Source: a virus. Taken from it: a stretch of 64,000 bases of DNA. Of the stretch, positions 48,461-64,000 are shown in pieces. The stretch is from the IMG/VR virus record IMGVR_UViG_3300037461_000409, positions 34,780-98,779 of that record; one strand, written 5' to 3'. Each line of letters begins with the position of its first letter. Position 1 is the stretch's first letter. Below the pieces are notes generated by a model. It had not been told where the DNA came from. It was given only the letters and a program-made list of their open reading frames with translations, and searched no databases. Both the position numbers and the translations under genes were made by a program.

Positions 48461-49918
48461 CTAGACGCCGTAGAGCCGAGAGTTGTCGAGCCCAGCGCTT
48501 CCGCTGGCGCGACCGACGTTCTTGTAGATCACGGCTCGCCCGGGGGCGTAGACCACGGGCGTCCCGTAGATCAGCTGCATCCACCGGATCGCGGTGGAGA
48601 TGGTGGCGAGCGGGATCTTCAGGAACGGCGCCAGCTGCTTGAACGAGAAGAACTCCAGGTTCTGCTGGATCAGGACCGCCTTGGAGGTCCCGGGGAGCTC
48701 GGCGTTCCAGTCGGTGAGCACAGTGGTTGCGCCGGAGCGCGCCGTGGTCTTCGCCAGCTTGCACGTTGTCGCCAGGCCATCCTTGGTTGAGCGATAGAGC
48801 TCGAAGGCCGTGCCGGCGTCACTGCCGTCGGCGACGGTCATGGTCACCTTCTTGCCGCTGCTGACAGTGCAGGGACCTGTCATCGCCACCGCGGCCGACC
48901 GGCCGTAGCGGTTGATGGCGCAGACCTTGTAGTAGTAGTCGCCGCTGTCGCTGGCGACCCAGTACGAGGTCTCGCCCCCGCCAAGCGACACTTCCGTCGG
49001 AGCCACGCTCTCGGTCGGGGTGCTCGGGCGCTTGCCCGAGGGGCCCGCGGCGGTCGATGGCGCCACCGGGCCAAACTGGATGAAGGTGTCGGGGCTGAAC
49101 TTGATCGGTCCGAACTGGCTGTAGAAGCCCTGGATGTTCAGACCGACCATCCCGTTCTGCCACCCAGCGGGATTGAGCGGGATGCGCTCGGCCGGGTAGA
49201 AGCCCTTGGCCAGATCGCTGAAGGCGCCATCGGCCAGGTAGAGGTCGGTAGCGCGCCCGTAGTTGGGCTCGGTCTTGACGATCAGGCACCCGTCGTTGAG
49301 CGCATCCTCGGACAGCGGGCGGCCACGCATGTCGATCACGTTCAGGGTGGGATTCGGGGCGCCGGCGGTGATCTGCTTGACCAGGCCATCCCACTGCTGG
49401 GGGATCATCGTGCTGTCACCGAAGAACAGCGCCCGCTCCACCTGGCGCAGCAGCCAGGCGGTGCCGTTCACGGTCTCCTGCGCGATCACGTTGCCGTGGG
49501 CCGGGCGGATCAAGGACATGACGTGCGACACCGACCGCGTCACACCCATGTACTTGACCACGCTGTACTCACGGCTGTAGGTCGAGTCGTCCGACTCGGG
49601 GAGATCCCCCTCGTCGATGAACGCCGCGACCCCCGAGCCGTACTCGCGCAACCTGTTGTGCTCCTCGACCGTGTTGAACGCCGGCAGCTTGGTCACGCTC
49701 TGCCACAGCCGCACGTCATCCATGCGGTAGGTGACGACCTTCAGCGTGTTCTCCAGGGACTCGATCCTGAGCGGGAAGCCCTCGCCCGCGGACACGCCCG
49801 GGTTGTTGATCGACTGACCAGCGGTGAGCGCCTTGCGCAGATCGGCCAGGTCATCCGGAGACGGCACCCCGTACCCTTCGACGCCGGCGTAGTCCCGCCA
49901 CGACACGTTGCCTTGCAT
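48461..49918 (-). CDS. Major capsid protein (SPO1/Twort-like)
   Basis: LRKALTAG...LRIESLE, NTVEE, E.ALFFGDS...WDGL, NVIDMRG, YG.P; 485 aa. Confidence 0.95.
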   Translation of the reverse strand: MQGNVSWRDYAGVEGYGVPSPDDLADLRKALTAGQSINNPGVSAGEGFPLRIESLENTLKVVTYRMDDVRLWQSVTKLPAFNTVEEHNRLREYGSGVAAFIDEGDLPESDDSTYSREYSVVKYMGVTRSVSHVMSLIRPAHGNVIAQETVNGTAWLLRQVERALFFGDSTMIPQQWDGLVKQITAGAPNPTLNVIDMRGRPLSEDALNDGCLIVKTEPNYGRATDLYLADGAFSDLAKGFYPAERIPLNPAGWQNGMVGLNIQGFYSQFGPIKFSPDTFIQFGPVAPSTAAGPSGKRPSTPTESVAPTEVSLGGGETSYWVASDSGDYYYKVCAINRYGRSAAVAMTGPCTVSSGKKVTMTVADGSDAGTAFELYRSTKDGLATTCKLAKTTARSGATTVLTDWNAELPGTSKAVLIQQNLEFFSFKQLAPFLKIPLATISTAIRWMQLIYGTPVVYAPGRAVIYKNVGRASGSAGLDNSRLYGV

Positions 49919-49971: not shown

Positions 49972-51063
49972 CTACTTGCCCAGCTCGGCCTTGATGTCGC
50001 CGAGCATGCTCTTGGAGATGTGCCCGGTCGTCTCGTACAGAGCGACCGCGCGCTCAAGCGGCTCCCCGCAGGGGGCCATGAAGTTGTTGTTGCGGGACTT
50101 CTGCATGAGACGCTCCATGCCCTCAAGGATCTGCTCGCGCGAGAGCGCATCCCCCGCCTGGCCGCCGTCGAAGGACTTGGCGAGCGCCCTGGTGCCACTC
50201 ACGCTCTTGCGCGGCATGGGCGTCGACTCGACCACCCCCAGGCGCTCGGAGAGCGCGCGGATCTGGGTCTGCTGGCTCTTGATCAGGTCCGCCTGCTCAA
50301 GCACGGTCTGGCCGATGTTGCGGAAGGACTTGGCGAGAGCCGCGTTGAAGCTGCTCTGCCGCTCGCTCGACTTTTCCATGCTCGTGCGCAGGAAGTCGAG
50401 ACCCTCGGCAATCAGCTGAGAGTGCCGCTCGATGAAGGGGCTGATCTCGTAGTCCTGCTTGAGCTGGTCATCGTTCGCGAACAGCTCTTTGAAGGACTTG
50501 TCCAGATCCTCGCCCTCGGGCTCGGCCGTCCCGCCAAGCAGCTGCACCAGCTCTTGCTGCTCGGCCTTCTCGATGGTCCCGTCGGCGAGCTTGGCCGCGA
50601 GCTCGGCGCGGCGGTCCACCGGGCCGTCGGCCCCGGCGGCCGTGGCTTCCAGCACGTCCAGGGCCTTCATGAGGTCGCTCTCGGCGATGTCGGACTTGCA
50701 GGCTTTCTTCTTCTTCATGTCCTCGCCATCCTCCTCGCCTTCGGCCTTCTTCGCCCTCTTCTCCTCCTCCTCCTCCCCCTCTTCCTCCTCCTCCTCGCCC
50801 TCTTCCTTCTCGTCCTCTTCCTCGGCCTTGGCGACCGACTTCTGCGTCTTGGCCCAAGGGGGAGCCGGCTTCTTCTCCTCGTCCTTGTCCTTCTCCTGCT
50901 CCTCGGCCTTCTTGGCCTTGCCGACCATCGGTTTGCCGGGAGCCTTGTCCGACAGACCACCATCGGCGGCCTGCTGAGACTGGGGCATCCCTCCCTCGCT
51001 CTTGCCGAACATCCTCTCGGCCGCAGCGGTCGCGGCCTCGTCGGCGGTCATCAGGTGTTGCAT
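49972..51063 (-). CDS. Scaffold/core protein
   Basis: Acidic low-complexity coiled coil between protease and capsid; at least 12 hydrophobic-x-K[S/A] motifs. Confidence 0.78.
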   Translation of the reverse strand: MQHLMTADEAATAAAERMFGKSEGGMPQSQQAADGGLSDKAPGKPMVGKAKKAEEQEKDKDEEKKPAPPWAKTQKSVAKAEEEDEKEEGEEEEEEGEEEEEKRAKKAEGEEDGEDMKKKKACKSDIAESDLMKALDVLEATAAGADGPVDRRAELAAKLADGTIEKAEQQELVQLLGGTAEPEGEDLDKSFKELFANDDQLKQDYEISPFIERHSQLIAEGLDFLRTSMEKSSERQSSFNAALAKSFRNIGQTVLEQADLIKSQQTQIRALSERLGVVESTPMPRKSVSGTRALAKSFDGGQAGDALSREQILEGMERLMQKSRNNNFMAPCGEPLERAVALYETTGHISKSMLGDIKAELGK

Positions 51064-51065
51064 TC

Positions 51066-51842
51066 TCAGGCTCCTTTCCTGGTCATCCTGGCCGCGAATC
51101 GCCAGATTCGTTCGGCGGCCCGCCCGGTGATGTGCGGGTGCCGTTCATGGATCACGCGCATGGCCTCGGCCTTGGTCAGCCGTCGCTTGCGCTTCTTTTT
51201 CTGCGGACGAGACGGGCTACTGACGCCCTCCAGTGATTCGGTGCGCAGAGCAAACCCATCGCCAGGGGTCGGAGTCGCTGGAGGGGATATGGCGGCTCCG
51301 GCGGTGAGCATCTTCTCGACCGCCAGCATGCTCTTGGCAAGGACATCCAGTCCGGTTTTGGTGTTAACGGGGCAGTTAGTTACAGCTACATTGGTGACGC
51401 GAGCCGAAGCGATTGTCCTGCCGTCATCACCGGAGCGCCTGAGAACCTTGCCCTCGATGGAGAACCCCAGACGCCGGTCCGTCTGCTGGAGCGCCTGGGC
51501 CAATTCCCAGAGCTTGTCCGCCTGGGTGGTGCCTGCGAGGAGATAGCCCTCCATCCGCGTCGCGGGCTTGCCGTCTACGACCGTGCGCTCGACCTTGAGC
51601 GGATAGCCAACGACCCCGGCGGTGTCCCGGCTGTGGTTGTCGTTGAGCCAGCCGTTCCGGATGAAGTCCGAGAACTCCAGGCCGCGCTGGAGTACCACCT
51701 CGCCCTGCTTGTCCTCGTGCTCGGTGCTGATTACCCCGCCGATCCGGCGTTCTTTGCCAGGCTCGCCGGCCTTGTGCCACACCTCGATGGGAATGTCGAT
51801 CCGGAACGGGATTTCGGGACTGACAGGATACTCAGGGGCCAT
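51066..51842 (-). CDS. Prohead protease
   Basis: IGGVISTEHED.QGE.V.Q.GL, NDNH, LGFSIEG, NVAVTNCPVN. Confidence 0.9.
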   Translation of the reverse strand: MAPEYPVSPEIPFRIDIPIEVWHKAGEPGKERRIGGVISTEHEDKQGEVVLQRGLEFSDFIRNGWLNDNHSRDTAGVVGYPLKVERTVVDGKPATRMEGYLLAGTTQADKLWELAQALQQTDRRLGFSIEGKVLRRSGDDGRTIASARVTNVAVTNCPVNTKTGLDVLAKSMLAVEKMLTAGAAISPPATPTPGDGFALRTESLEGVSSPSRPQKKKRKRRLTKAEAMRVIHERHPHITGRAAERIWRFAARMTRKGA

Positions 51843-51935: not shown

Positions 51936-52146
51936 CCTTTTTCGCAATGACCAGCCGACGGGCATCGTCGGCGAGCGCCTTTGATAGCTCTGACCCTACC
52001 TGCAAGTCGATGGGCACGGGCTCGCCGCATTGGCGACAGATCACCTGTACCGCGCCCTTGTCGATCAGCAGCATGGACGTGCGAATCTTAAGCTTTTCTC
52101 CCGCGTGGTAGACCACCATGTGCGAGCAGGATGGGCACCTGGTCAT
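51925..52146 (-). CDS. Small zinc-ribbon protein (Com-like architecture)
   Basis: RCPSC...ICRQC, 73 aa, ATGA-coupled to the MuF fusion. Confidence 0.7.
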   Translation of the reverse strand: MTRCPSCSHMVVYHAGEKLKIRTSMLLIDKGAVQVICRQCGEPVPIDLQVGSELSKALADDARRLVIAKKVDS

Positions 52147-55133
52147 TGGCGCAGCTGTCCAGGGCCAAGGGTGAGTCGACCGGCTTGCAGCCGCCGACCG
52201 CGACGCTCGGCCTCTTGGTCGAATACCTCACGGTTGGCCTCGGTGCCACGCTCGTCGCGGCCCTCCATCTCGGGCATCGGGTGGGCCCAGTTTTGATTGG
52301 GCGGGGCCAATGCTCGCATGCGATCCTGTTTTTCCTTCGGACCGTCGGTGAACCCGCGGCGCTTCTTCTTTCTCCGCCGCTCCTCGCTCGCCGGATGGTC
52401 ACCGGCCATCCTCGGCGCGAACGCCACCTGTCCGGGAGTACGCGCGGGATCGCCGTAGTTGCCCATGGTCCCGACGGAAGAGCGGTGGCTGATGTCGACC
52501 GCCAGGGCATCGGCCTTGCCGAACAGGTCGAGCTGCTCGTGATGTTCGAGCAGCGACCAGTCGGCCGAAGCCGCCGCGGGCCCGGCCTCCCAGCGGATCT
52601 TGTCGACCCGCGTGAGGCTCTCCTCGCCAGCGCCAGCCCGAGCCCCGTGGGGCCGGTCACCGCGGATGTACTCCACTGGTCGCAAGCCCTTGTCCGCAAG
52701 CGCCCTGTAGGTGTTCCCCTGCTCGGTCGCAAGCTGGTAGGTGATGAACAGCCCGGGCTTGCTGAGATCGCCGCGCTTGCTTGTCTCCAGCAGGTCGAGC
52801 AACCGGGCGATCAGCATGCTCGCGGCGTTCTTGGTCGTGCCGTCGCTGGCGACCCGGGTGAGCTCGACGACGTTGCGGGGATCCAGCCCGCGCAGAGCCC
52901 TGCCGGTGGGATGGCCGGCGGTGGCGACCGCGACCAGGCGATTGCCGCGCTTGACGCCGATGGCGTACATGAGGCCGCGCGGGTTGAGGTAGGGCAGCGT
53001 CTTGTGGTGCTCGGCGATGAACTTCGCCGCCTCGGTCTTGGGCACGTTGACCAGGCGTAGCTCGCGGTGCTCGCGGTCCATGCTGTCGGCAAGGATGGCC
53101 GCGGCCACCCACGTCGGGATCGCCATCCCCTCCCGGAACCGCTCGGGGTTCCAATCGTCCATCCACCCTCGGCGGTGCTTGACCTTGGGCAACTCGATTC
53201 CGGTCTCACCCTGGGCCGCATGGGCGTAGGTCTCGCCGGCGATGTGGACCAAGCGCTCGGCGATCATCAGGCGCTGGTCGTCGGTGTAGGGTTCGCCCTG
53301 GCCATCCTTGTAGGGAACGTGGAGCAGATCGGGGAGGTCGGAGTAGGTGAAGCCCTGCCACTCGGGCTCCTCGCCCCCCTCCGGCTCCTGGTCGCCCAGC
53401 TTGGCGATCATTCCGTAGTCCACGTCCTCCCAGACCTTGCGCGCGGCGGCGATCATGTCGTGCGCCAGCACGTCCGGGTCCTCGCCGTCCCACGCGCCCT
53501 CGGGGCGCTTGATCGGTTCCTTGTAGCCGCGCTCTCCTTCCTGCGGAGCTCCACTGGGGCCGAACCGTTCATGCAGGCGTGGCCCGCCCTTCGGCTCCTC
53601 TGGCTGATAGGACCGCGTGTGCTGCGGATCCGCCCAGCGTCCGCCGCGCGGGCCGAGGTAGAGCTGCCGGGCCTTGACCAGCTCACCCTTTCGATACTTG
53701 CCCGCGAGACAGTTGGCGCGGAACTTCTCCACCGGGATCGTGGTCGCCGATCCCCAGAACCCGGGGTTGTCGTAGTGGCTCAGATAGGCGTGCTTGGCGC
53801 TGGCCAGGTCGGGCCAGCCAAGCATGATCTTGTCCTCGTCCACCTCCGTGAACTCCGGAGCGCGCATCTGATGAACCACGTAGACCTGTTTGGCGTTCTC
53901 GTCCGGGCCCAGGAACACGTCCAGGTGGTCTCCGTCGGTCCCCTCGGTCATGCGGATGTAGCCGTATGGCACGCGCATGCGCGTCTCGCCGTCGGTGCCA
54001 GTGGCCTGGTCATGCCAACGACGGATGCTGCCCTTCCGATTCTCGACGCTGATCGGCAAGCCCGCGAACATCGTGCGGTAGTGGAGCTTGCGCGCCTTGC
54101 TCAGTGGCTGGTAGTGCTGAATCAGCTTCAGCGCCAGCTTGCGACGCTCCCACATGTCCCGGCGTCGCTCGGGATCCTCTTCCTTGGTGGCCATCACCCG
54201 CAACTGATCGACCACGCGCAACAGTCGCGCCACCAGGTCATCCGCGGCGACGGGCGCTTCACTCTTTTCCGACTCCTCCGTGAGCATGCTCTCGGGCACG
54301 AGATCCCAGTCATCGTTGAACGCCATGCCCCGGGGGACGCGGGTCAGGACGCACTGGCACCAGGGATGAACGGCGCCCATAACCGGCAGCCAGTCGTCGC
54401 GCTTGCGCCCGACGTTGTTGACCCCCTGCTCGGCCCACCAACTCGCCGGATGGGCCTCGGGCTTGCCATCCTCGTCGAGGTACAACCGCTTGCAATCGGG
54501 GCACGCAGTCGGTTCTGGCATTTTTGCCAGAAGCTCCTCCGACCCATACCGCCGCATGGTCGACTCCAGAAACCCCTGCTGGTAGGCCATCTGGCTCTCG
54601 GTCGACGCAATCCTCCCCCAGTCGCGCGCCCAGTCCCTGCTCATCTGCCGGAGCTTGGTGGTCAGCGTCCCCACGGCCTCCCGCCTGACCACATTGGCTG
54701 CGGTCTCATCCCGGATGCCCTCGCGGAATTGCTGGGCCAGCTTTTCGTCGATGGGTACCACGGCCGGCCCCACCTCGCCTGACCAGCGGGTGCCCAGGCC
54801 GACGCAGAACTGCCCAGCGCGATCTCGCGCGAGCTCCCAAGCTCGACGCTCTTGTTCGCTCATCTCGACCGGGTTCTTTTCGAGGTATCGCTTGAAGTCC
54901 TCGTAGCTCATCTGCGCGAGGCCGGGCAGCTTTTCCAGCAGCCTACCGTACTCGAAAGCGTCCAGGGTCAGGTCGCGGATGTCCTCTTCGCGGAGGTATC
55001 CGAGGTCGACCAGGCGCTTGAGCTCATCTGGCCCCACCCGCAAGCCAGTGGTGGCCACCGACACCGCGGTGCTGGCGTCGCGGACGATCTGGCGAAGCTC
55101 CTCAAGTTGCTGGGGGGTAAGCAGCGGCATCAA
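52143..55133 (-). CDS. MuF-like head morphogenesis protein fused to inorganic pyrophosphatase-like and Mom/XF1762-like GNAT domains
   Basis: RIASTE...ACPDC...HPWCQC (MuF); ISVENRKGS.R...YGYI...DGDHLDV...DEDKIMLG (InPase); EA..FI.EHH...ELTRVASDG..NAASML...ITY....E.G..YRA...K.RWE (Mom-like). Confidence 0.85.
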   Translation of the reverse strand: MMPLLTPQQLEELRQIVRDASTAVSVATTGLRVGPDELKRLVDLGYLREEDIRDLTLDAFEYGRLLEKLPGLAQMSYEDFKRYLEKNPVEMSEQERRAWELARDRAGQFCVGLGTRWSGEVGPAVVPIDEKLAQQFREGIRDETAANVVRREAVGTLTTKLRQMSRDWARDWGRIASTESQMAYQQGFLESTMRRYGSEELLAKMPEPTACPDCKRLYLDEDGKPEAHPASWWAEQGVNNVGRKRDDWLPVMGAVHPWCQCVLTRVPRGMAFNDDWDLVPESMLTEESEKSEAPVAADDLVARLLRVVDQLRVMATKEEDPERRRDMWERRKLALKLIQHYQPLSKARKLHYRTMFAGLPISVENRKGSIRRWHDQATGTDGETRMRVPYGYIRMTEGTDGDHLDVFLGPDENAKQVYVVHQMRAPEFTEVDEDKIMLGWPDLASAKHAYLSHYDNPGFWGSATTIPVEKFRANCLAGKYRKGELVKARQLYLGPRGGRWADPQHTRSYQPEEPKGGPRLHERFGPSGAPQEGERGYKEPIKRPEGAWDGEDPDVLAHDMIAAARKVWEDVDYGMIAKLGDQEPEGGEEPEWQGFTYSDLPDLLHVPYKDGQGEPYTDDQRLMIAERLVHIAGETYAHAAQGETGIELPKVKHRRGWMDDWNPERFREGMAIPTWVAAAILADSMDREHRELRLVNVPKTEAAKFIAEHHKTLPYLNPRGLMYAIGVKRGNRLVAVATAGHPTGRALRGLDPRNVVELTRVASDGTTKNAASMLIARLLDLLETSKRGDLSKPGLFITYQLATEQGNTYRALADKGLRPVEYIRGDRPHGARAGAGEESLTRVDKIRWEAGPAAASADWSLLEHHEQLDLFGKADALAVDISHRSSVGTMGNYGDPARTPGQVAFAPRMAGDHPASEERRRKKKRRGFTDGPKEKQDRMRALAPPNQNWAHPMPEMEGRDERGTEANREVFDQEAERRGRRLQAGRLTLGPGQLRQ

Positions 55134-55369: not shown

Positions 55370-55770
55370 GGCACGCCGGCGACCAGGTAGGTCACGATTG
55401 CGTCCTCGGTTGTCGAGGCGTTGCTGGCCTTGATCTCCGTGATCTCGCCCTCCCAGAACAGCTTGGCCTTGGCGCCGCTCGTGGGAGTGAGCTTGAACTG
55501 CTCGGTCCCGCCGTTGAGCTTGAGCGTCAACTCCTGGTCGGTCTCCATGTACAGCAGGTTCGCCGTGCCCACGCCACCCAGGTCCAAGTCAGCGTCGGTT
55601 GTGGATTTGGGGATCACCCGCGTGTCGCTCTTGCCCACCTCCAGATCCGTGCGGATGGTCTGGATCGTGGTCTTTTCCGCTCGCTCGAATCCGACCAGCT
55701 TCTCGTCCGAGTCCAGGGTCGCCAGGATCGCGATGCTGTGCTTCACTCGATAGGTGCTCGCCATCGTCAA
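55366..55770 (-). CDS. Hypothetical beta-rich virion protein
   Basis: Directly after portal. Confidence 0.65.
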   Translation of the reverse strand: MTMASTYRVKHSIAILATLDSDEKLVGFERAEKTTIQTIRTDLEVGKSDTRVIPKSTTDADLDLGGVGTANLLYMETDQELTLKLNGGTEQFKLTPTSGAKAKLFWEGEITEIKASNASTTEDAIVTYLVAGVP

Positions 55771-57467
55771 ACCTCGATTCGGTAGGTGCGCCGGTGGCGC
55801 ATAGACTTTTTCTGCTCCTCCTCCGGCTCGCCCTCGGTGCCGGGGAACTCATCGAACTGAGAGAGCATCTCATCCCAGGGCCCCGGCTGTCCCTCCTCCT
55901 GGCCCTCGTCTCCCGGCGGCTGACCGCCCTCGGACTCCGGCGGCTGTTCGCCTTCTCCCTCCTCCGGGGCGGCGCCCTCGGCTCCCGCTGGACCCATCTG
56001 CTGCTGCTGGGCCGCCATCTCCTTTGCCTGCGAGAACTGCAGCCACGTCGGGTCGAGGATGCACTCGCCCTTACCGTCTGGCAGCGGCGGTAGATCGTCC
56101 TCGGCCCGGATCTCGTCTACGGTCTTGAGGTAGGTGGACTGTTTCTTCTGCAGGTCAGCGATCTCGGCCCCGCTTCTCATGTCCAGGCCGGTGAAGACGA
56201 TCTGGTAATCCTCGTCGATACGCCAGATCAAGTAGCGGTTGAGCCACTCTCCGAGTGCCCGCAACAACGGACGCAGGCCGCGGTCCTTCGAGCTCTTGAT
56301 CCTCCCCTCGGCCGGCGCCTGGAACATCTGCTGCTGCTGGCCGGTGTTGCCGAACAGGAAGTTGATCTCCGATGGATCAATCTGATAGACGGCGCTGGCG
56401 ATCTTGATCAGCCAGTCCAGGAACGCCGAGAACTCCATGTCCCGGTTGCTGCTATGGAGGTTGATGTACTGCAGATCCTCGGCGTTGATCACCGGCGTCC
56501 GCCAGGCGTTCGCCACGCCGGCGATCTGCTGGTACCACTGGCGACGGAAGGCTTCGAGCTTGGTGTCGGGGATGGCGCCCTTGATGTTGATCAGGCCCTT
56601 GGTCACGCTGCCCTGGGAGAAGAATCGGGCGTTGTACTCGAAGGCCCAGAGCATCGCCGTGACCGTGCGGATGAGCATCTCGATCTCACTCATGCCATAG
56701 CCATTGAGACGAATGCCCGTGCGGGGGTTGCGGACGCCGAAGCACAACTCCGACGCCGCGAACTCGGCGATCACCACGTCGTCATAGACCTGAACATAGC
56801 GCACGCGCTTGGGGTCGTCGCTCGGTTCAGCGGCCGTGGGGATGTCAGCCAGGCGGATGGTGCTGGCATCGACGGCGTAGAAGTCGCTGGGCTCGCCCTT
56901 GCGGTTGTCGACCACCTCGAAACAGCCCTGGTCGTAGACGAGGCTGTCCCGGATCAGCTTGCGAACGAAGGACTCCAGCGAGTCCTTGCCATAGGCGCGG
57001 GTGCTCCCGGTGTAGCGCAGCCAGTCCTCAATGGCCTTCGCCCGGACCATCTCTTTCTTGGTCGGCGACTTCTCTTCGTCCCGGAGCTTGATCTGGTAGC
57101 CCGGCTCCCGGTCGTTCAGCTGGGGGATGCAGAAGTTGGCGACCTGGTTGACGCGGGTTTGGATGATCGCCGAGACCACCGGGACCTTGCGGTGGATGTC
57201 TTCGAGCATGGCATAGGTCATGCCCGACGGGCGGTCCTTGAACCCCAGCTGATCGATCACGCTGAATGGGTCGTACAGTAGGGCTTTGGCCCCCTGATCC
57301 GCAGGATCTGGCATGTCCGGCGGGTTGTTCAGGTGCCCGTCGTTCTTGGCGCCCGGCGCCGCCTGGGCGGCCTTGGCGAACGTGTCGAACGCCAGGCCAC
57401 CCATGTAGCCCAGCGCCCCCCCGAGAGCGCTGGACACGCTCTCGCGCAGTCGATCCTGCCAGCCCAT
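55767..57467 (-). CDS. Portal protein (SPO1/Twort-like)
   Basis: AIIQTRVNQV..F, RKLIRDSL.YDQ, AVDASTIR, RNPRT...GYG.SE.E, NAWR.P, DMEF, IDPSEINF. Confidence 0.95.
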   Translation of the reverse strand: MGWQDRLRESVSSALGGALGYMGGLAFDTFAKAAQAAPGAKNDGHLNNPPDMPDPADQGAKALLYDPFSVIDQLGFKDRPSGMTYAMLEDIHRKVPVVSAIIQTRVNQVANFCIPQLNDREPGYQIKLRDEEKSPTKKEMVRAKAIEDWLRYTGSTRAYGKDSLESFVRKLIRDSLVYDQGCFEVVDNRKGEPSDFYAVDASTIRLADIPTAAEPSDDPKRVRYVQVYDDVVIAEFAASELCFGVRNPRTGIRLNGYGMSEIEMLIRTVTAMLWAFEYNARFFSQGSVTKGLINIKGAIPDTKLEAFRRQWYQQIAGVANAWRTPVINAEDLQYINLHSSNRDMEFSAFLDWLIKIASAVYQIDPSEINFLFGNTGQQQQMFQAPAEGRIKSSKDRGLRPLLRALGEWLNRYLIWRIDEDYQIVFTGLDMRSGAEIADLQKKQSTYLKTVDEIRAEDDLPPLPDGKGECILDPTWLQFSQAKEMAAQQQQMGPAGAEGAAPEEGEGEQPPESEGGQPPGDEGQEEGQPGPWDEMLSQFDEFPGTEGEPEEEQKKSMRHRRTYRIEV

Positions 57468-57484: not shown

Positions 57485-60400
57485 TCAGTCGCGCTTCCGG
57501 AACGCCTGCCTCACCATCGGGTCACTGTCATCGACCACGGTAGTCGGAGGAACGGCGGCCCCCATGAAACCGAACCACGCGGGGTCGCCCCCGTTGCCCT
57601 GGTTGCCCGCGGCGTCGTCTTCGAGCGTCTGATCGAGCACCTGCTGGCGCATGAACGCCTCACGGTCGTCCGCCTGGTTGGGCAACGCGGCCTCGCCCTG
57701 GTAGATCGTGCCCTTCATCATGTCCACGTTCAGCCGCCGCGGCTGATCGTAGTGCCGGGCGCCGACCCCGAGTTCCATCCCACCGTCCATGGCCTTGCAA
57801 ACGTACTCGTCCGAGGACAGTCCCAGGTCGACCGAGCCCATGCGGACGCTCTTGTGCGCCTCGGGCAGGGGCGGATTGTCCGGCTCGACATGCGGCTTCA
57901 GCTTCGGCATCTTTCCAACTCCTTCCTTGTCCAGCTTGATCAGAGGGGCCTTGGCCTTCCTGGCGGTGCCCCTCTCGATGCGGTCATCCTCCGGTGACGC
58001 AACAGACGCGCTTCGGCGCCAGTGCTGAAGGTTGTGCTCCTTGCGGAGCTTCTCAGCCTGGTTCGCGTGCTCGTGCATCTTGGACCGAGCGGCTTCGACG
58101 GCCTCGTGCGGATGGCCCTGTTCCTGTCTCTTCGCCGACCGCTCGCGCCACTTGTCACTCTGGGTGTCGTGGTGCTGGATCTCCTTCTTCGCGGCCTCGG
58201 TCTTGACGTGTCGCTCTGCCTGCTCTTGGGTTCCCCCTTGAGCTCCCATGCCAGGGTACCAGTAGACGTAGCCACCTGGCCCCATCTTCCGGAACCCTCC
58301 CTTGGCCCCTCCTGGGATCGGGGACCAACCGGACCCCGGGGGGCGCTTGCCGAGCTTGGCTGCGATGCGGTGGAGCAGCCCGGGCTTTTTCTCCTCCGCG
58401 TGCTCGCCTGCTACCGGCTTGTACGGGCTTGGTCTCTCCCTGCCCGTTCGCTCGGCCACGGCGGTCATGGCCGACTTGCCCAACTTGCCCCGCTCGTCGA
58501 TCAGATCGGCCCTCGCCATTCTCGCACCCTCGAACTGGGCCGTGAGGTGCTGTGACGGCGAACCAGAGACGATCGCTCGCAGGTAGGCCCGATAGTGCAA
58601 TCCCTCTTGCCCCTCGTGCTTCGATGCGTCCAACAACTTCTTGGCCGTATCTTTCCACCGGTTTGCTTCTGCCTCACCCTCCGAGGTTCCTCCACTACCG
58701 CCGGCCGCTTTCTGCGAGGCTTCCTCGGCCACGCGACTTCTCTCGGCGGCGTGTGCAACATCCTCCTCGTTGCCCGTCCGAGACGCATTTTCGTGAGCGA
58801 TAGCGGCGTTCTTGTGGGCCATGTACGCCGCTCCGTGGGAGTCCCGCGCTTCCTTGTGCGGATCGGCCCGCATCATCTTTTGCGCCGGCAGCTTCTTGAG
58901 GACTTCCTCGTGTTCGATCATCGCGGCCATGTGCTTCTCCGCGGCCTTATGGTGCGGATTTCGAGGCACGTCCTTCGGCTCTGCGAGAAGCGCCGCCGTT
59001 GCGCGATGGTGCTCGGCCAGGTCGGCCTCGTGCGGCTCGGTAGTTGTCACGCCCTTCCCCGGATACCAGTAGATGTACCCGGACCCATGGCGCTTGCGGT
59101 ATCCACCGTGGGCGCTCCTCGGCACCGGCTCGTATCCCGCGGGGGCTTTCGACGACTTCTCCATTCTCTGGAGCTTGATGTAGTAGTGCCTGTCCTCCGT
59201 CAGGTGGTCCATCGCAATCTCCCGTGCGACCTTCCGGTCGCGGGTGTGCTCCATCTCGACCTTGATCCCGGCATGGAGCTGTTCCTGGTCGAAGTCCTCC
59301 GGACGCTTGCCCGCAGCCACCCCTCCGGGGATGCGCTCAGCCTTCTCAAGCCAGTCGTCGAGTTCCGAGGTCAGGCCGATCATCGCCCGCAGGGCCTTGG
59401 CCACCTCCACCCCAAAGAACCGGTCCATCGCCGCGTTGCGGTCCTCGCCCTCGGGCATCTTCTGGATCTCATCCCACTGGCTGCGCACGCGCTTCATGAT
59501 CTCCGCATGTTTTCGCTCGGCCGGATCCTTCGCGGGTTGTCCACCGGGCTCCCACTTGAAGTTGATGCCGTTTCCCTTGTCTCCGATGTGAGCCTCTGGG
59601 GGGGGCTTGCCGTCGAGAATCTTATGGGGATCGGTTCCGTAGTCCTTGAGCAGCTTCGCGAACTGCTTGTCTTCCTCGTCGTCTCCGAACACCTCGCCGA
59701 TGGTCTGGCGCGCGTCCGATTGTTCGATCACGACGTTCATGTCGCCGCCCTTGAAGGAAAACTCGGGGCTCCTGCCGGCGAGGCGGCTGATCAGGAACTT
59801 AGGAGTCATCTCCCCGAGTTCCTGTGCCGCCTGCTGGAGCAGAGCCTTCGAGCTCGGCGGCAGATCATCGCGGCGGTCGATCTCGGCAGAAAGCGCCCGT
59901 TTGACGCCGCCGATCATGGCCTTGACCTTGGCCTTATCCTCGGGCTTGCGCTCGCCGTCCTTGGGCTTGGGAAACATCTCCTGCGCCAGCCGGATCTTGA
60001 CCAGACACTCGACCGCCTCGGGCCGGTCGAACATCACCTCCGGCATCTTGTCCGAGAACAGGTGGGTGTTGTCGGCCAACCGAATGGCGCTCCCGAAGTG
60101 GTCGCCCTTCCAATCGACGGCCGTGCCGCTATGGTTGGCGACCGCCTGGACGTAGGTCTCGAACTTGTCGGCGCCGAACAGTTCCTCGTACTTCTTTCGC
60201 TGTTGCATCACCAGGACCGCGCTCGCCTGGGGATGGTAGTTGTCCTTCACCGCAAAGCCACCCTGGGCAATGGCTGGGGTGGTGTAGCCCATGTCATGAT
60301 CGATCCAAGCCTGATAGGCCATGAATCGATCCCGCGGGTCCAGCTCGACCCCGCCCTTTTCCAGCTGGTCGAAGATCGCGTCGGACATCCGGGCGTTCGA

Positions 60401-61171
60401 CGCCAGGTGCCGCACGCCATGGTCGCCCAGGGTCCGCCGGGCGCTCTCGGTTTCCTGCTGCGCGAGCTTTCGGACGTTCTCTTCCATCACCTCCGTCAGC
60501 TTCTGCCTGTCGATGCCCGCGGCCTGACCATGCTTGACCATCTGGCCCATCATCTCCTTCGCCTTCTCGACGTTCGAGGGGATGATGTAGCCCTGCCGGC
60601 CGAGGTGCTCGATGTGAGCGTCGACGGCCTTGCCGAGGTCTCCCTTGTACTCCCTGGGCGGGCCCTGGCGGTCCTCGATCTGCTTCTGGACGTTCTCCCA
60701 ATCGGCGGTCATCACCGCCCGGGTCTTCTTGTCCAAGTCGTTGAAGCCCGGGGGCAGCTGACTAGGGTCGATGATCACCTCGGCCTTGGGTGGCTTGTCC
60801 TCTTTCTTCGCCTCTGGCTCGGGCTTGGCAGGTTCTTTCTCGGGCGCTGTCTTGCCCTCGCCCGCGCCTCCCTCCTGGGGCTTGCTCGTGATCCCCACGC
60901 CCGGATACCAGTAGATGTACCCGGCCCCATGCTTCTTGTGGTACCCGCCGTGCTTGCTGTTGGCGATGGGAGAAAAGCCAGCCGGAGCCTTGGAGGTCGA
61001 GTCGGCTTTCACCAGGTCCAATACCAGTCTCTCGGACTTCGCGCCCTTCGCGTGCTGGTAGATTCCCATGATGTAAGCGTAGTCCCCCGACCGACCCTCT
61101 TCCTTAGCGCGACGCTTGGCCAGCGACCACAGGTGCTCGTCGCGCTTGGTCTTCACGGCTCCGACTGGCAT
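57485..61171 (-). CDS. Large multidomain internal-head polyprotein (HD phosphohydrolase, DUF5661-like, 3x GYxYWYPG repeats)
   Basis: DHG..H...HDMGY...H...H...LADN (HD); GIKVEMEH...EIAMDHL.E..YY.KL (DUF5661-like); GGAGGGAG SD before ATG at 61171. Confidence 0.8.
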   Translation of the reverse strand: MPVGAVKTKRDEHLWSLAKRRAKEEGRSGDYAYIMGIYQHAKGAKSERLVLDLVKADSTSKAPAGFSPIANSKHGGYHKKHGAGYIYWYPGVGITSKPQEGGAGEGKTAPEKEPAKPEPEAKKEDKPPKAEVIIDPSQLPPGFNDLDKKTRAVMTADWENVQKQIEDRQGPPREYKGDLGKAVDAHIEHLGRQGYIIPSNVEKAKEMMGQMVKHGQAAGIDRQKLTEVMEENVRKLAQQETESARRTLGDHGVRHLASNARMSDAIFDQLEKGGVELDPRDRFMAYQAWIDHDMGYTTPAIAQGGFAVKDNYHPQASAVLVMQQRKKYEELFGADKFETYVQAVANHSGTAVDWKGDHFGSAIRLADNTHLFSDKMPEVMFDRPEAVECLVKIRLAQEMFPKPKDGERKPEDKAKVKAMIGGVKRALSAEIDRRDDLPPSSKALLQQAAQELGEMTPKFLISRLAGRSPEFSFKGGDMNVVIEQSDARQTIGEVFGDDEEDKQFAKLLKDYGTDPHKILDGKPPPEAHIGDKGNGINFKWEPGGQPAKDPAERKHAEIMKRVRSQWDEIQKMPEGEDRNAAMDRFFGVEVAKALRAMIGLTSELDDWLEKAERIPGGVAAGKRPEDFDQEQLHAGIKVEMEHTRDRKVAREIAMDHLTEDRHYYIKLQRMEKSSKAPAGYEPVPRSAHGGYRKRHGSGYIYWYPGKGVTTTEPHEADLAEHHRATAALLAEPKDVPRNPHHKAAEKHMAAMIEHEEVLKKLPAQKMMRADPHKEARDSHGAAYMAHKNAAIAHENASRTGNEEDVAHAAERSRVAEEASQKAAGGSGGTSEGEAEANRWKDTAKKLLDASKHEGQEGLHYRAYLRAIVSGSPSQHLTAQFEGARMARADLIDERGKLGKSAMTAVAERTGRERPSPYKPVAGEHAEEKKPGLLHRIAAKLGKRPPGSGWSPIPGGAKGGFRKMGPGGYVYWYPGMGAQGGTQEQAERHVKTEAAKKEIQHHDTQSDKWRERSAKRQEQGHPHEAVEAARSKMHEHANQAEKLRKEHNLQHWRRSASVASPEDDRIERGTARKAKAPLIKLDKEGVGKMPKLKPHVEPDNPPLPEAHKSVRMGSVDLGLSSDEYVCKAMDGGMELGVGARHYDQPRRLNVDMMKGTIYQGEAALPNQADDREAFMRQQVLDQTLEDDAAGNQGNGGDPAWFGFMGAAVPPTTVVDDSDPMVRQAFRKRD

Positions 61172-61187
61172 GGCTCTCCCTCCTTGC

Positions 61188-61769
61188 CTACAGGTCGCCA
61201 AAGGTCTCGTCGACGGTCACGCCGAGGATGGGACGGAACTGGTTGTACTGCGCCTGCGTCACGCTGGTGTCCCCGGTGCGATTCAGGACCGCCTGGGCCA
61301 GCTCGATCCACTGGTTGTTCGCCCCAACGGCCGCCTGCACGTCCGCGTCTGATGGCGCTTTCTCCGAGCCGGTGGTGGCGGGCGTGCCCTTGACCGCCAC
61401 GACTGTGATCGTGCCGGCGACGTTCTTGGCCACGATCCTCGCGCGGCAGCTCTTGCCCGATGTCAGCCCCGTCAGGAAGCTCCCACTGTGGATGGCGAAG
61501 TCGGCCAGGGCGTCGATGTCCTTGACCACCCCGTCCACGACCACCTGTCCGAGTGCGTAGTTGATGTTCCAGAGCGTGTCGCCCGTGCCGGTGGCCTGAT
61601 CGCTGGGCGTGGTCGGATCGTCGGTCAGAACGCCGAACAGCACCTTGTTGGTCTCGTGCGCGCGGATGGCCTCGAACCACCTGGCGATGATGTCGCTGAT
61701 CTCCTCGATGTCCTCGGGCTGGTACTTGTGGCTCTTGCGGCTTTCAGCGACGACAGATCGGCTGCTCAT
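61188..61769 (-). CDS. Hypothetical protein (possibly virion)
   Basis: 193-aa ORF with GGAGG SD. Confidence 0.65.
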   Translation of the reverse strand: MSSRSVVAESRKSHKYQPEDIEEISDIIARWFEAIRAHETNKVLFGVLTDDPTTPSDQATGTGDTLWNINYALGQVVVDGVVKDIDALADFAIHSGSFLTGLTSGKSCRARIVAKNVAGTITVVAVKGTPATTGSEKAPSDADVQAAVGANNQWIELAQAVLNRTGDTSVTQAQYNQFRPILGVTVDETFGDL

Positions 61770-61778
61770 TGGTGCCTC

Positions 61779-62093
61779 CTATTCCACGTCCTGGTCGTGG
61801 ATGAGATAGAGCTCCCCATCGGGAGAGCTGGTCATGTTCGAGTTGTACTTCGAGAAAGCATGCGCGTACTGGAAAGAGTAGGCCCGGCGGTCCAGCTCGG
61901 CCGGTGATATCCCCGCGTAATAGGGGGTGGCCGAGGGGTCGGTAAAGGGGCCCAGGTGAAACAGCTGGTCGGGCCCGAAGCCGTTGCGCTTGAGCTCGCT
62001 CTTGACGTGCCACCACCAGATGCCGAAGTTGCGGTAGTAGAGCGGCACCTTCTGCAGGATCGCCACCACGTTCTGCGCTTGTTCCTTGGTCAT
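61779..62093 (-). CDS. ulx: Ulx-like protein (P1 DarB packaging accessory)
   Basis: LQKVPLYYRNFGIWWWHVKSELKRNGF resembles the P1 Ulx core as recalled (LxKxPxxYRxYGxYWxxxKxxLxxxGY); ATGA-coupled downstream of the DarB-like gene as in P1. Confidence 0.65.
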   Translation of the reverse strand: MTKEQAQNVVAILQKVPLYYRNFGIWWWHVKSELKRNGFGPDQLFHLGPFTDPSATPYYAGISPAELDRRAYSFQYAHAFSKYNSNMTSSPDGELYLIHDQDVE

Positions 62094-64000
62094 GCCGAAC
62101 GCCTTTCTTCCCAGGCCGATTCTGCCTCTTTTGCCACGGCGCTGAACAGCCCCTCAGAGCGACTGTAGCCATAGCCGCCGCCCCCGTAGTTCTGCCGTCC
62201 GACCTTGAGCAGCGGGTTCTCCCACTCGCGCCACGATGGTCCCTTGTTCGCCTCGGCCAGCGCCCGCACCAGATCCTGGCGATCCTTGCCCCAGGGGTAG
62301 ACGATCTTGAGGCCGCCGATCTTGTCCGTTGGCGCGACCACGATGTCTCCCCCAGCATCTCGAACCAGCATTTCCCGGCCACGACCGTGCTTTGACAGCC
62401 ATTCCCGCACGGCCCCGTCCACCATGTCCTGGTTGGCCGCCAGCACGTCCGGTGAGATGTGGGTGATGGCTTCCAGCGGCGTGAGGTACGACACGTCGGC
62501 ATTCTTTCCGAGCGCCTCGCGCAGCTCGTCGACCGCGGTGTACTTGCTGACGGTGTACCCGTGCTCGGCGATCTTGTCCACGTCGATGGTGTGGCTGTGG
62601 GGGTATCCCCAGCTGCGCACCGTGAGCTTTCGCTCACCAAGGTCGACCTTCTCAACCACCATCCGCCCGGGCTGGCCGTAGCCGGTGTCCTTCTCCTGAA
62701 TCACCGTTCCCGCGCGAATGAGGCCGGCCGCCAGACGCCGGGCGTCTCCTTCTCCCGTGAGGTAGGTATTGACCGCCACCGGCGCGGTGTCCCCGGAGTT
62801 GAGCAGGGCCTTGATCTCCAGCGGCAGCAACTCGTTCCGAAGCAACTGCCGCTTGAGCCGACTGGACTCCTCGACCAGGCGGTCACGGGTCTCTCCCTCT
62901 CGCATCTTCCCCATGCGCTCGATCTTCCGCTGGTAGCTGTAGAACCCGTCCACCGCCAGCTGCGCTTGCCTGGTGTACCAGGCGCTCTCGGCGCTGGCCC
63001 GCTTTTCCTTGATCAGGCGCAGGGCCTCGTCGGGGTTGTCCGAAAGCATGGCCAGCATTTCCACCTCGTCCAGCCCCTGGCCGTCCATGTCGTTGTCAAT
63101 GTCATTAGCCCCACTCCGGAGCTTGTCGAGCCATCGTTCCTTGCCCATGAGCGTCGAATGGCGGAAGCCATCGAAGCTGCCTTTGGCGAGGTAGGTGTGG
63201 ACGTTGACCTGCTCGGCCCGGTTACCCTGACGCACCCCGCGGCCATTGCGCTGGTGCAGCGTCCCGGGATCCCACGGCTGATCCAGATGGTGGATGTCCG
63301 TCGTCCCGGCCGCATGTTTCTTGCCCTGGAGGTTGACCCCCTCGCCCATGGTTCCGGTGTTTCCGATCACGACCTTGATTTCACCACGGTTGAAGCGGTC
63401 CCCCACTCGCTGGCGCGCCTCGGAGTCAGGCGCGACCTGGGCGTTGATGATGCCGATCTGGTCCTCGCGCAGCCCGCGCTCCATCAGCAGCTTTTTCAGA
63501 CGCTCGTGGCTGGCGTTGTGGTCGCAGAAGATGATCTGCCCTCCGCGCTCGCGCACTCCCTTGGAAGCCTCATCCGCACAGGCCAGGTACTTTGGGCTCT
63601 CGGTCCAGCCGTCGGGGTACTCCTCGGGATCGTAGAGCGACAGATCCTGGGCAGCCTTTTTCATCTGGTCCAGCATCCGGAACATCCCGCCCGGGTCCTT
63701 GCGGCTGTCCGCAGTCTGAGCTTTCGCCCGGAGGTCGAAATAGACAGCCTTCTGCGTGGGCGTCATGTCGACCAGGTGCATCTCCTGCTTGGCGTCCGGG
63801 ATCTTCAACCCAACGTCGGTGGCCGTCTGGAGCATCATGTACTTGTCCATGATCCCCTCAAGCTCCTTGAGGTTGGTGAACCCAACGACGCACTGAGCCT
63901 CCTCCAGATTGCCCGCGCCCTCGAAGTCATCGTGGAACTGGGTCTCGTCCTCGTCCTCCTCGTCTTCGCCCTTCTTCTTCGGGCCCCTGCCCGGGGGTGT
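62090..64000 (-). CDS. darB: DarB-like SNF2 helicase protein, C-terminal part (5' end beyond window)
   Basis: Frame open to window edge; FTNLKEL, GQIIFCD, FNRG...IGNT.TMGEGVNLQ, HHLDQPW.P....QRNGRGVRQGN, Y..KGSFD. Confidence 0.75.
   Translation of the reverse strand, partial: TPPGRGPKKKGEDEEDEDETQFHDDFEGAGNLEEAQCVVGFTNLKELEGIMDKYMMLQTATDVGLKIPDAKQEMHLVDMTPTQKAVYFDLRAKAQTADSRKDPGGMFRMLDQMKKAAQDLSLYDPEEYPDGWTESPKYLACADEASKGVRERGGQIIFCDHNASHERLKKLLMERGLREDQIGIINAQVAPDSEARQRVGDRFNRGEIKVVIGNTGTMGEGVNLQGKKHAAGTTDIHHLDQPWDPGTLHQRNGRGVRQGNRAEQVNVHTYLAKGSFDGFRHSTLMGKERWLDKLRSGANDIDNDMDGQGLDEVEMLAMLSDNPDEALRLIKEKRASAESAWYTRQAQLAVDGFYSYQRKIERMGKMREGETRDRLVEESSRLKRQLLRNELLPLEIKALLNSGDTAPVAVNTYLTGEGDARRLAAGLIRAGTVIQEKDTGYGQPGRMVVEKVDLGERKLTVRSWGYPHSHTIDVDKIAEHGYTVSKYTAVDELREALGKNADVSYLTPLEAITHISPDVLAANQDMVDGAVREWLSKHGRGREMLVRDAGGDIVVAPTDKIGGLKIVYPWGKDRQDLVRALAEANKGPSWREWENPLLKVGRQNYGGGGYGYSRSEGLFSAVAKEAESAWEERRSA

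Follow-up and report, generated by a model that had tools for sequence, protein, structure and literature searches.

The minus strand of the DNA studied here (the window: the right-hand 64 kb of one 98,779-bp IMG/VR virus contig, IMGVR_UViG_3300037461_000409, which is linear and 87% complete by CheckV) carries a gene at 52143..55130, comprising 995 codons plus stop. Its product joins a divergent MuF-like head-morphogenesis domain, a family-I-like pyrophosphatase (InPase) domain and a Mom/XF1762-like GNAT domain, and closes with a conserved basic tail. An earlier note on this DNA had described the three-part architecture, and we confirm that observation; its interpretation, a DNA-modifying enzyme tethered to the capsid, is partly supported. 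Judged by its own sequence and those of its relatives, the polyprotein is a polyvalent protein, with a fixed anchor and tail, exchangeable cargo and a virion-gene setting. It would thus be a system of a known kind with a new cargo, for which we infer DNA modification and injection. The explanation that we favor, at a probability of about 0.42, is that the polyprotein would be loaded into the procapsid and cleaved, that its enzymes would be ejected, and that the GNAT domain would acylate DNA within a Dar-like anti-restriction set. All window coordinates below refer to the minus strand.

The open reading frame (ORF) at 52143..55133(-) runs unbroken across 996 codons, without frameshift or stop. 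It is a real, uninterrupted triple-domain gene, with the three domains where the earlier note had placed them. We take the ATG at 55130 as the real start because it overlaps the stop of an upstream 79-codon ORF (TGATG), because homologues begin M(P/A)LLT, and because the database gene call (P0002) has 995 residues. At the other end, the TGA stop of the polyprotein gene and the ATG of the gene that follows overlap (ATGA). From these overlaps, the gene is predicted to be translationally coupled to both neighbors. The InPase module (53673..54095; residues 347-487, ending L-V-K487/A488) matches Pfam PF18823 over residues 353-472 with an E-value of 1.9e-31 and 109.1 bits, against a cut-off of 26.8. 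Its D400-G-D402-H-L-D405 motif is intact, and 19 relatives all keep residues E364, D400, D405, D432 and K435. The pyrophosphatase-like domain with intact DGDHLD that had been proposed at 53690-54090 is therefore firm, with its acidic residues kept. InPase is a domain of packaged polyvalent proteins (PMC5512222), and in a solved virion structure, 9b41, an InPase is fused to the C-terminus of the portal.

The second cargo module, which we call the Mom-like unit, consists of an LYLGPRGGRW tag with an acidic helical subdomain (53079..53672; residues 488-685, isoelectric point (pI) 4.9), followed by the GNAT domain (52515..53078; residues 686-873, ending F-G-K873/A874). The GNAT domain has a pI of 9.7, compared with 10.0 for Mom. 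NCBIfam NF045478 (XF1762_fam) matches residues 695-848 over model positions 3-142 of 143, with 51.6 bits against a cut-off of 50. Against Pfam Mom (PF25680, cut-off 27.1), the full protein reaches 24.6 bits and the isolated domain 29.0 bits, covering model positions 2-98 of 202 only, and phrog_1384, 'Mom-like DNA modification protein', matches at 3e-13. A genome-wide scan of the phage with PF25680 overlooked the domain, its first pass being less sensitive. Among the real genes of the genome, the GPRGGxW tag occurs here only.

We modeled residues 521-867 with AlphaFold2 (34 homologues; pLDDT 87, pTM 0.82). In the model, the helical subdomain (521-685) packs on the GNAT domain (about 690-865). 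The top solved Foldseek match to the unit is Mu Mom (8bv8_B, E 1.6e-6), and VIA-align likewise ranks Mu Mom 8bv8 best (Z 14.2 and a root-mean-square deviation of 3.4 over 166 aligned residues), with generic GNATs next at Z <=12.7. When the PDB was searched with a profile of the GNAT unit, no Mom was recovered; the link to Mom came from the structure search and hhalign only. The hhalign comparison to Mu Mom pairs R111 with R760, S124 with S772, and H58-Y59 with H709-H710. In an alignment of 35 family members, H709-H710, R760, S772 and Y809 are invariant. In Mom, R111 and S124 are essential, and the enzyme modifies N6 of adenine in double-stranded DNA with Gly-tRNA(Gly) as the donor (PMC13219725). 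The canonical coenzyme A (CoA)-binding motif Q/RxxGxG/A is not evident by eye in the GNAT domain. A Mom/XF1762-like GNAT domain had been proposed at 52580-53065, and a C-terminal domain unlike GNAT or Mom had been named as what would speak against it; the domain proved to have a GNAT fold with Mom nearest. Taken together, the profile and Foldseek comparisons that the earlier note had suggested give a firm InPase, Mom 8bv8 for the GNAT domain and, by fold, MuF-like proteins for the N-terminal domain.

The unit shares with Mu Mom (PDB 8bv8; Silva et al. 2026, PMC13219725) the GNAT fold, the equivalents of R111, S124 and H58-Y59, and the basic character of the domain, as well as a link to anti-restriction, which we read here from its fusion partners. 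It differs in having an acidic helical subdomain of ~165 residues ahead of the GNAT domain, and in being embedded in a head polyprotein, whereas Mu Mom is a free late protein under Com control. From the XF1762 family (NF045478), of which it matches nearly the whole 143-position model just over the curated cut-off, it is set apart in the same way: XF1762-type proteins are small and stand alone, whereas the domain here travels with the helical subdomain. In the Mom-like-unit family, the helical subdomain always accompanies the XF1762-like domain, and free-standing relatives of 340-430 residues align to residues 521-863, covering both parts. The ESM Atlas returned no match for the helical subdomain, and our literature search found no paper on XF1762 function.

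The N-terminal domain (N-domain; 54264..55130; residues 2-290, ending K290/S291) carries the invariant motifs RDWxRIAxTE, C211-x2-C214 and H256-P-W-C259-x-C261. It is followed by a spacer (54096..54263; residues 291-346, ending L-S-K346/A347) that is predicted to form a two-helix hairpin. No Pfam or PHROG model is significant on residues 2-283. Phage_Mu_F (PF04233) is the commonest Pfam family among relatives of the domain, always below threshold (E 0.001-0.07): 3 of 24 N-domain members matched, the best at E 0.001, and the relative P0042 matched across the whole model at E 0.073. A model of residues 2-500 has a pLDDT of 80. Foldseek against BFVD returned 'Phage head morphogenesis domain', 'MuF-like minor capsid protein' and 'Minor capsid protein' at probabilities of 0.98-1.0 over 265-314 columns; these are short proteins without InPase, and the TM-scores are low (0.2-0.4). 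In the ESM Atlas, PF04233 is carried by 25 of the 30 nearest named clusters. An hhalign comparison of the N-domain family with SPP1 gp7 aligned only the H..CxC element and gave nothing significant, and a search for short proteins with the N-domain yielded three proteins only. The domain is thus MuF-like by fold, language-model neighbors and position, several weak and partly independent lines being in agreement. That it works like MuF is better supported than membership of PF04233 as that family is defined. Of the 'MuF' domain that had been proposed at 54290-55130, the placement (residues 2-283), the fold and the portal-side position hold; the Pfam threshold is not reached.

Like SPP1 gp7 and Mu gpF, the N-domain is encoded just after the portal gene, spans ~290 residues, and has a helical N-terminal part, a '..TE..' helix and a C-terminal H/C-x-C-x-C element. 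Unlike them, and with no significant profile or hhalign match between them, it has a full CxxC...HxxCxC set, the pattern of which suggests a metal site. In some relatives (proteins P0011, P0041 and P0049; loci L014:1889-4591 and L017:4209-5969), the profile match to the N-domain is split just before HPWCxC by an insert of ~275 residues with Hint/intein-splicing matches. This suggests an intein inside the MuF-like domain of these proteins.

The polyprotein closes with a basic tail (52146..52514; residues 874-996, pI 10.5) containing VGTMGNYGxPAR, DHPA, a run of K/R and a terminal RLTLxP. This tail closes every full-length relative, including cargo-free proteins made up of N-domain and tail (P0195-P0197). 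It matched no family that we tried and has no paralogue in the genome; capsid targeting and DNA binding are possible roles. The borders between the modules share a second feature. Only 4 of the 47 lysines in the polyprotein are followed by serine or alanine (K[SA]), namely K290, K346, K487 and K873, all of them at module borders; of the 36 lysines that lie within domains, none precedes A or S (P=0.006). The earlier note had missed the acidic helical subdomain of the GNAT unit, the basic tail and the presence of K[SA] at all four borders. In the relatives, a K[SA] lies <=25 residues upstream of 25 of 27 InPase domains (~26% would be expected by chance, by our estimate) and of 7 of 8 tails.

The same dipeptide recurs in the neighboring head genes. 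In the scaffolding protein (49972..51063), K[SA] occurs 20 times where 7.1 would be expected (P=2e-6). Most of these sites have a hydrophobic P3 or P4 residue, and from its sequence the set looks like dense prohead-protease sites. The major capsid protein (48461..49918) has L-R-K29/A30 near its N-terminus, and the prohead maturation protease itself (51066..51842), the candidate enzyme for these cleavages, has L-T-K224/A near its C-terminus. Because the motif is enriched in the scaffold and present at residue 29 of the major capsid protein, we lean towards the prohead protease as the enzyme that would cut the polyprotein at its K[SA] joints.

Relatives of the protein keep the N-domain and tail and vary what lies between them, which is why we regard it as a polyvalent protein and its tethering to the capsid as plausible. 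Fixed ends with variable cargo are a hallmark of packaged polyvalent proteins (PMC5512222). The closest example, a 2205-residue protein from UViG_3300032053_003745 (L001), shares 75% identity in the N-domain, 75% in the block from InPase to GNAT and 54% in the tail; it has Peptidase_C39 and PAPS_reductase inserted after the N-domain and ~480 more residues before the tail. Cargo in other relatives includes DUF6884, DUF5661, RadC, Hint/intein, topoisomerase I and other domains. Among 43 IMG/VR loci with the N-domain, 13 encode the N-domain alone (310-350 residues) and most others add InPase; the Mom-like unit is found in the same protein only in two contigs closely related to this phage.

The Mom-like unit itself is widespread. 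A profile search of the full library found it in 1358 clusters (50% identity) at E<=1e-3, and in 192 at E<=1e-30. Of 217 members compared, three have the N-domain (this protein, the 2205-residue relative and P0003), four join InPase to the unit without the N-domain, and 40 exceed 800 residues. A tblastn search with the unit against 50,697 GenBank phage records gave no match. DUF6884 (PF21818) occurs together with the Mom-like unit in three separate proteins (P0003, P0066 and P0080), which suggests that the two are functionally linked; our literature search gave no informative paper on DUF6884. Only three other sequences, all metagenomic, carry Mom-like cargo on this anchor. The earlier note's remark that the architecture had not been described holds for the papers searched, although the architecture is not unique: the search for it elsewhere, which the note had proposed, turned up these three relatives.

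Polyvalent proteins as described by Iyer, Burroughs, Anand, de Souza and Aravind (2017, PMC5512222) resemble this protein in their multi-domain build, virion-gene context, MuF-type anchor, InPase domain and cargo that varies between orthologues, and InPase and MuF fusions are reported there. That paper never mentions Mom, the two GNAT families in it are RimI-like and predicted to act on proteins, and it describes neither a basic tail closing the polyprotein nor K[SA] at every border.

The setting of the gene is that of a head module. On the minus strand, the portal gene (55767..57467) is followed by two small ORFs, the polyprotein gene, a gene for a 73-residue Zn-ribbon protein, and the genes for the prohead protease, scaffold and major capsid protein. 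The portal-proximal position that the earlier note had assumed is thus borne out, with the portal close upstream and the protease, scaffold and major capsid protein downstream. Just upstream of the portal, at 57485-61201(-), lies a 1238-residue protein with a DUF5661 match (residues 638-682) and 20 K[SA] sites, which is probably a second polyvalent head protein.

Several associations of the Mom-like unit involve DNA methyltransferases. P0065 joins it to a C5 DNA methylase, and P0229 to a DarB-like region matching M.TaqI-type N6-adenine methyltransferases. In the metagenome-assembled genome (MAG) HK-STAS-MYXO-43, three loci (L051, L052 and L053; JACKEV01 contigs 6, 17 and 20) have a DarB-like giant ORF followed, 0.9-4 kb downstream, by a stand-alone unit. 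These three pairs on large contigs hint at host range and at a mobile cassette. The MAG is labeled Alphaproteobacteria, and its isolate name suggests Myxococcota. Read from sequence, these associations tentatively point to DNA as the substrate of the GNAT domain, somewhat short of an even chance in our estimate. No tRNA genes were found in the phage genome, hence no phage tRNA-Gly that would support a Mom-type donor.

This phage encodes a DarB-like protein of its own. The C-terminal part of a DarB-like giant methyltransferase/SNF2-helicase ORF lies at 62090..64000, in the same operon direction, with Helicase_C/SNF2 at 62090-63997, and the ORF continues over the contig ends into G000:1-6336(-). 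The rest of it matches P7 darB, D6 'defense against restriction', a Thermus 'DarB-like' protein and a type I M subunit. One protein of the MAG (L052:686-6958) aligns in order to both pieces (62090-64000 and G000:C1:1-6336(-), L055), and the pieces therefore look like one gene of ~2750 residues. The 'linear' contig is probably a circularly permuted, near-complete genome.

The Dar proteins of phages P1 and P7 (DarB, Ulx) are packaged in the capsid and protect incoming DNA. The present system resembles theirs in the DarB-like N6-methyltransferase/SNF2-helicase giant ORF with the same operon direction, in the fusion or adjacency of the Mom-like unit to DarB-like proteins elsewhere, and in the proposed logic of a virion-borne enzyme acting on entering DNA, for which the evidence is association. 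It differs in that no Dar component is a GNAT and that the P1 Dar proteins are separate gene products. A cultured phage offers a comparison: in Bordetella phage vB_BbrM_PHB04 (94 kb; NC_047861.1 32601-34449, L056), the N-domain has a distant homologue (E 2e-10) in gp030, which is annotated as hypothetical. Near the portal, gp030 lies side by side with gp028 (an InPase on its own), gp027 (a DarB-like methyltransferase) and gp026 (Ulx-like). In PHB04, these genes are separate, not fused, and a Mom-like unit is absent.

According to the explanation that we favor, the polyprotein would be built into the procapsid via its MuF-like anchor, its tail or both, the prohead protease would cut it at the K[SA] sites, and the freed enzymes would leave the capsid with the DNA. 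The GNAT domain would then acylate DNA, most likely at adenine N6 and, like Mu Mom, with aminoacyl-tRNA as the donor; together with the DarB-like giant protein of the same operon, it would belong to a Dar-like anti-restriction set. Packaging and ejection of the polyprotein enzymes we regard as probable from the domain content and setting. The most specific form of the proposal remains doubtful: that the GNAT domain would be a virion-borne Mom-type hypermodifying enzyme, anchored by the MuF-like domain, freed by the protease and injected, and acylating adenines of the entering or host DNA via the aminoacyl-tRNA of the new host. If true, this would be the first case in which the capsid delivers, in cis, a DNA hypermodification other than methylation, alongside a DarB-like methyltransferase. 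The earlier note had pictured an enzyme tethered to the capsid and modifying DNA during packaging or just after injection. Tethering is plausible, given the anchor and tail that are kept and the head-module setting. If the GNAT domain, like Mom, draws on aminoacyl-tRNA, it is unlikely to modify DNA within the capsid, since a procapsid offers no tRNA; it could possibly act after ejection, or in the cytoplasm before assembly.

A number of observations weigh against the favored explanation. The XF1762 score is barely above its cut-off, identity to Mom is 17%, and the structural Z-score exceeds that of ordinary protein acetyltransferases by only 1.5. Mom has a helix-turn-helix (HTH)-like insertion (Mom residues 175-209) that the domain here lacks; in its place, between beta6 (818-823) and beta7 (845-850), are ~21 residues with one short helix. 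In Mu Mom this insertion is essential, and its deletion abolishes activity (PMC13219725). Since it is missing, the GNAT domain is Mom/XF1762-like and not a Mom orthologue, and Mom chemistry is not simply transferable. Another essential Mom residue, R151, has an equivalent that we could not place, the alignment being unreliable there; R787 or a non-basic position near L801 are candidates. On the N-terminal side, Phage_Mu_F (PF04233, gathering 29.6 bits) has no match at E<=10 on the domain or in the genome, and a hidden Markov model built from 24 diverse N-domains recovered neither Mu F nor SPP1 gp7. A family-wide depletion of K[SA] inside domains was considered and rejected (111 observed, 117 expected), and the cleavage rule may therefore be specific to this phage. 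The handful of enzyme molecules that a capsid would eject may not suffice, in number or speed, to protect 99 kb of incoming DNA, and the phage is an uncultured IMG/VR contig.

The GNAT domain could instead work as Mu Mom does, being made late and modifying replicated phage DNA in the cytoplasm, before or during packaging, with cytoplasmic aminoacyl-tRNA. The anchor would then merely bring it near the portal or co-regulate it with the head genes, and packaged copies would be irrelevant. The gene lies in a late structural operon, translationally coupled to its neighbors, and most family members are free-standing proteins of 340-430 residues; modification before packaging would also protect better against restriction than modification after entry, and Mu mom is likewise a late gene acting post-replicatively on double-stranded DNA (PMC13219725). 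Set against this are the anchor and tail kept around exchanged cargo, with cleavage-type motifs at each border, which point to capsid loading, and the association with DarB-like genes, which suggests virion-borne protection on the pattern of P1 Dar. We consider purely cytoplasmic action quite unlikely.

It is also conceivable, if somewhat improbable, that the GNAT domain does not act on DNA at all and is an ejected host-takeover or toxin-like effector, acylating a host protein or aminoacyl-tRNA in the manner of the RimI-like GNATs of polyvalent proteins or of AtaT/TacT-type toxins. The GNATs that Iyer et al. found in polyvalent proteins are predicted by them to act on proteins, and MuF fusions commonly carry toxins (PMC5512222). 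After Mom, the structural neighbors of the domain are N-terminal and ribosomal-protein acetyltransferases (Z 12-12.7), the DNA/tRNA-related HTH-like insertion of Mom is missing, and P0056, a relative, is a fusion of the unit and a protein kinase. This is countered by the best family matches, all of Mom type (PF25680, NF045478, phrog_1384), the invariance of the Mom R111 and S124 equivalents, the lack of an evident CoA-binding motif, and at least five independent cases in which the unit is fused to a DNA methyltransferase or lies beside one. That the fusion is non-functional, either an assembly chimera or a recent accidental joining with inactive cargo, is very improbable. The contig is metagenomic and the XF1762 and Pfam Mom scores are borderline, but the same junctions recur in two independent IMG/VR contigs (75% identity) and in a JGI protein (44%), the catalytic-type residues of both InPase and GNAT are intact, and the reading frame has no frameshift or stop.

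To our knowledge, the known phage DNA hypermodifications are made in the producing cell. If the favored explanation is true, a capsid-borne Mom-type enzyme would be a second route, giving protection on arrival as P1 DarB does by methylation. The locus offers a clean picture of how polyvalent proteins may be handled, in which anchor and tail stay the same, the cargo is exchanged and putative protease sites mark the joints. It also draws attention to a large unstudied branch of Mom-like GNATs, the 1358 clusters found here, which is without the insertion essential in Mu Mom and keeps the catalytic arginine and serine, and this bears on the choice of donor and target in this enzyme class.

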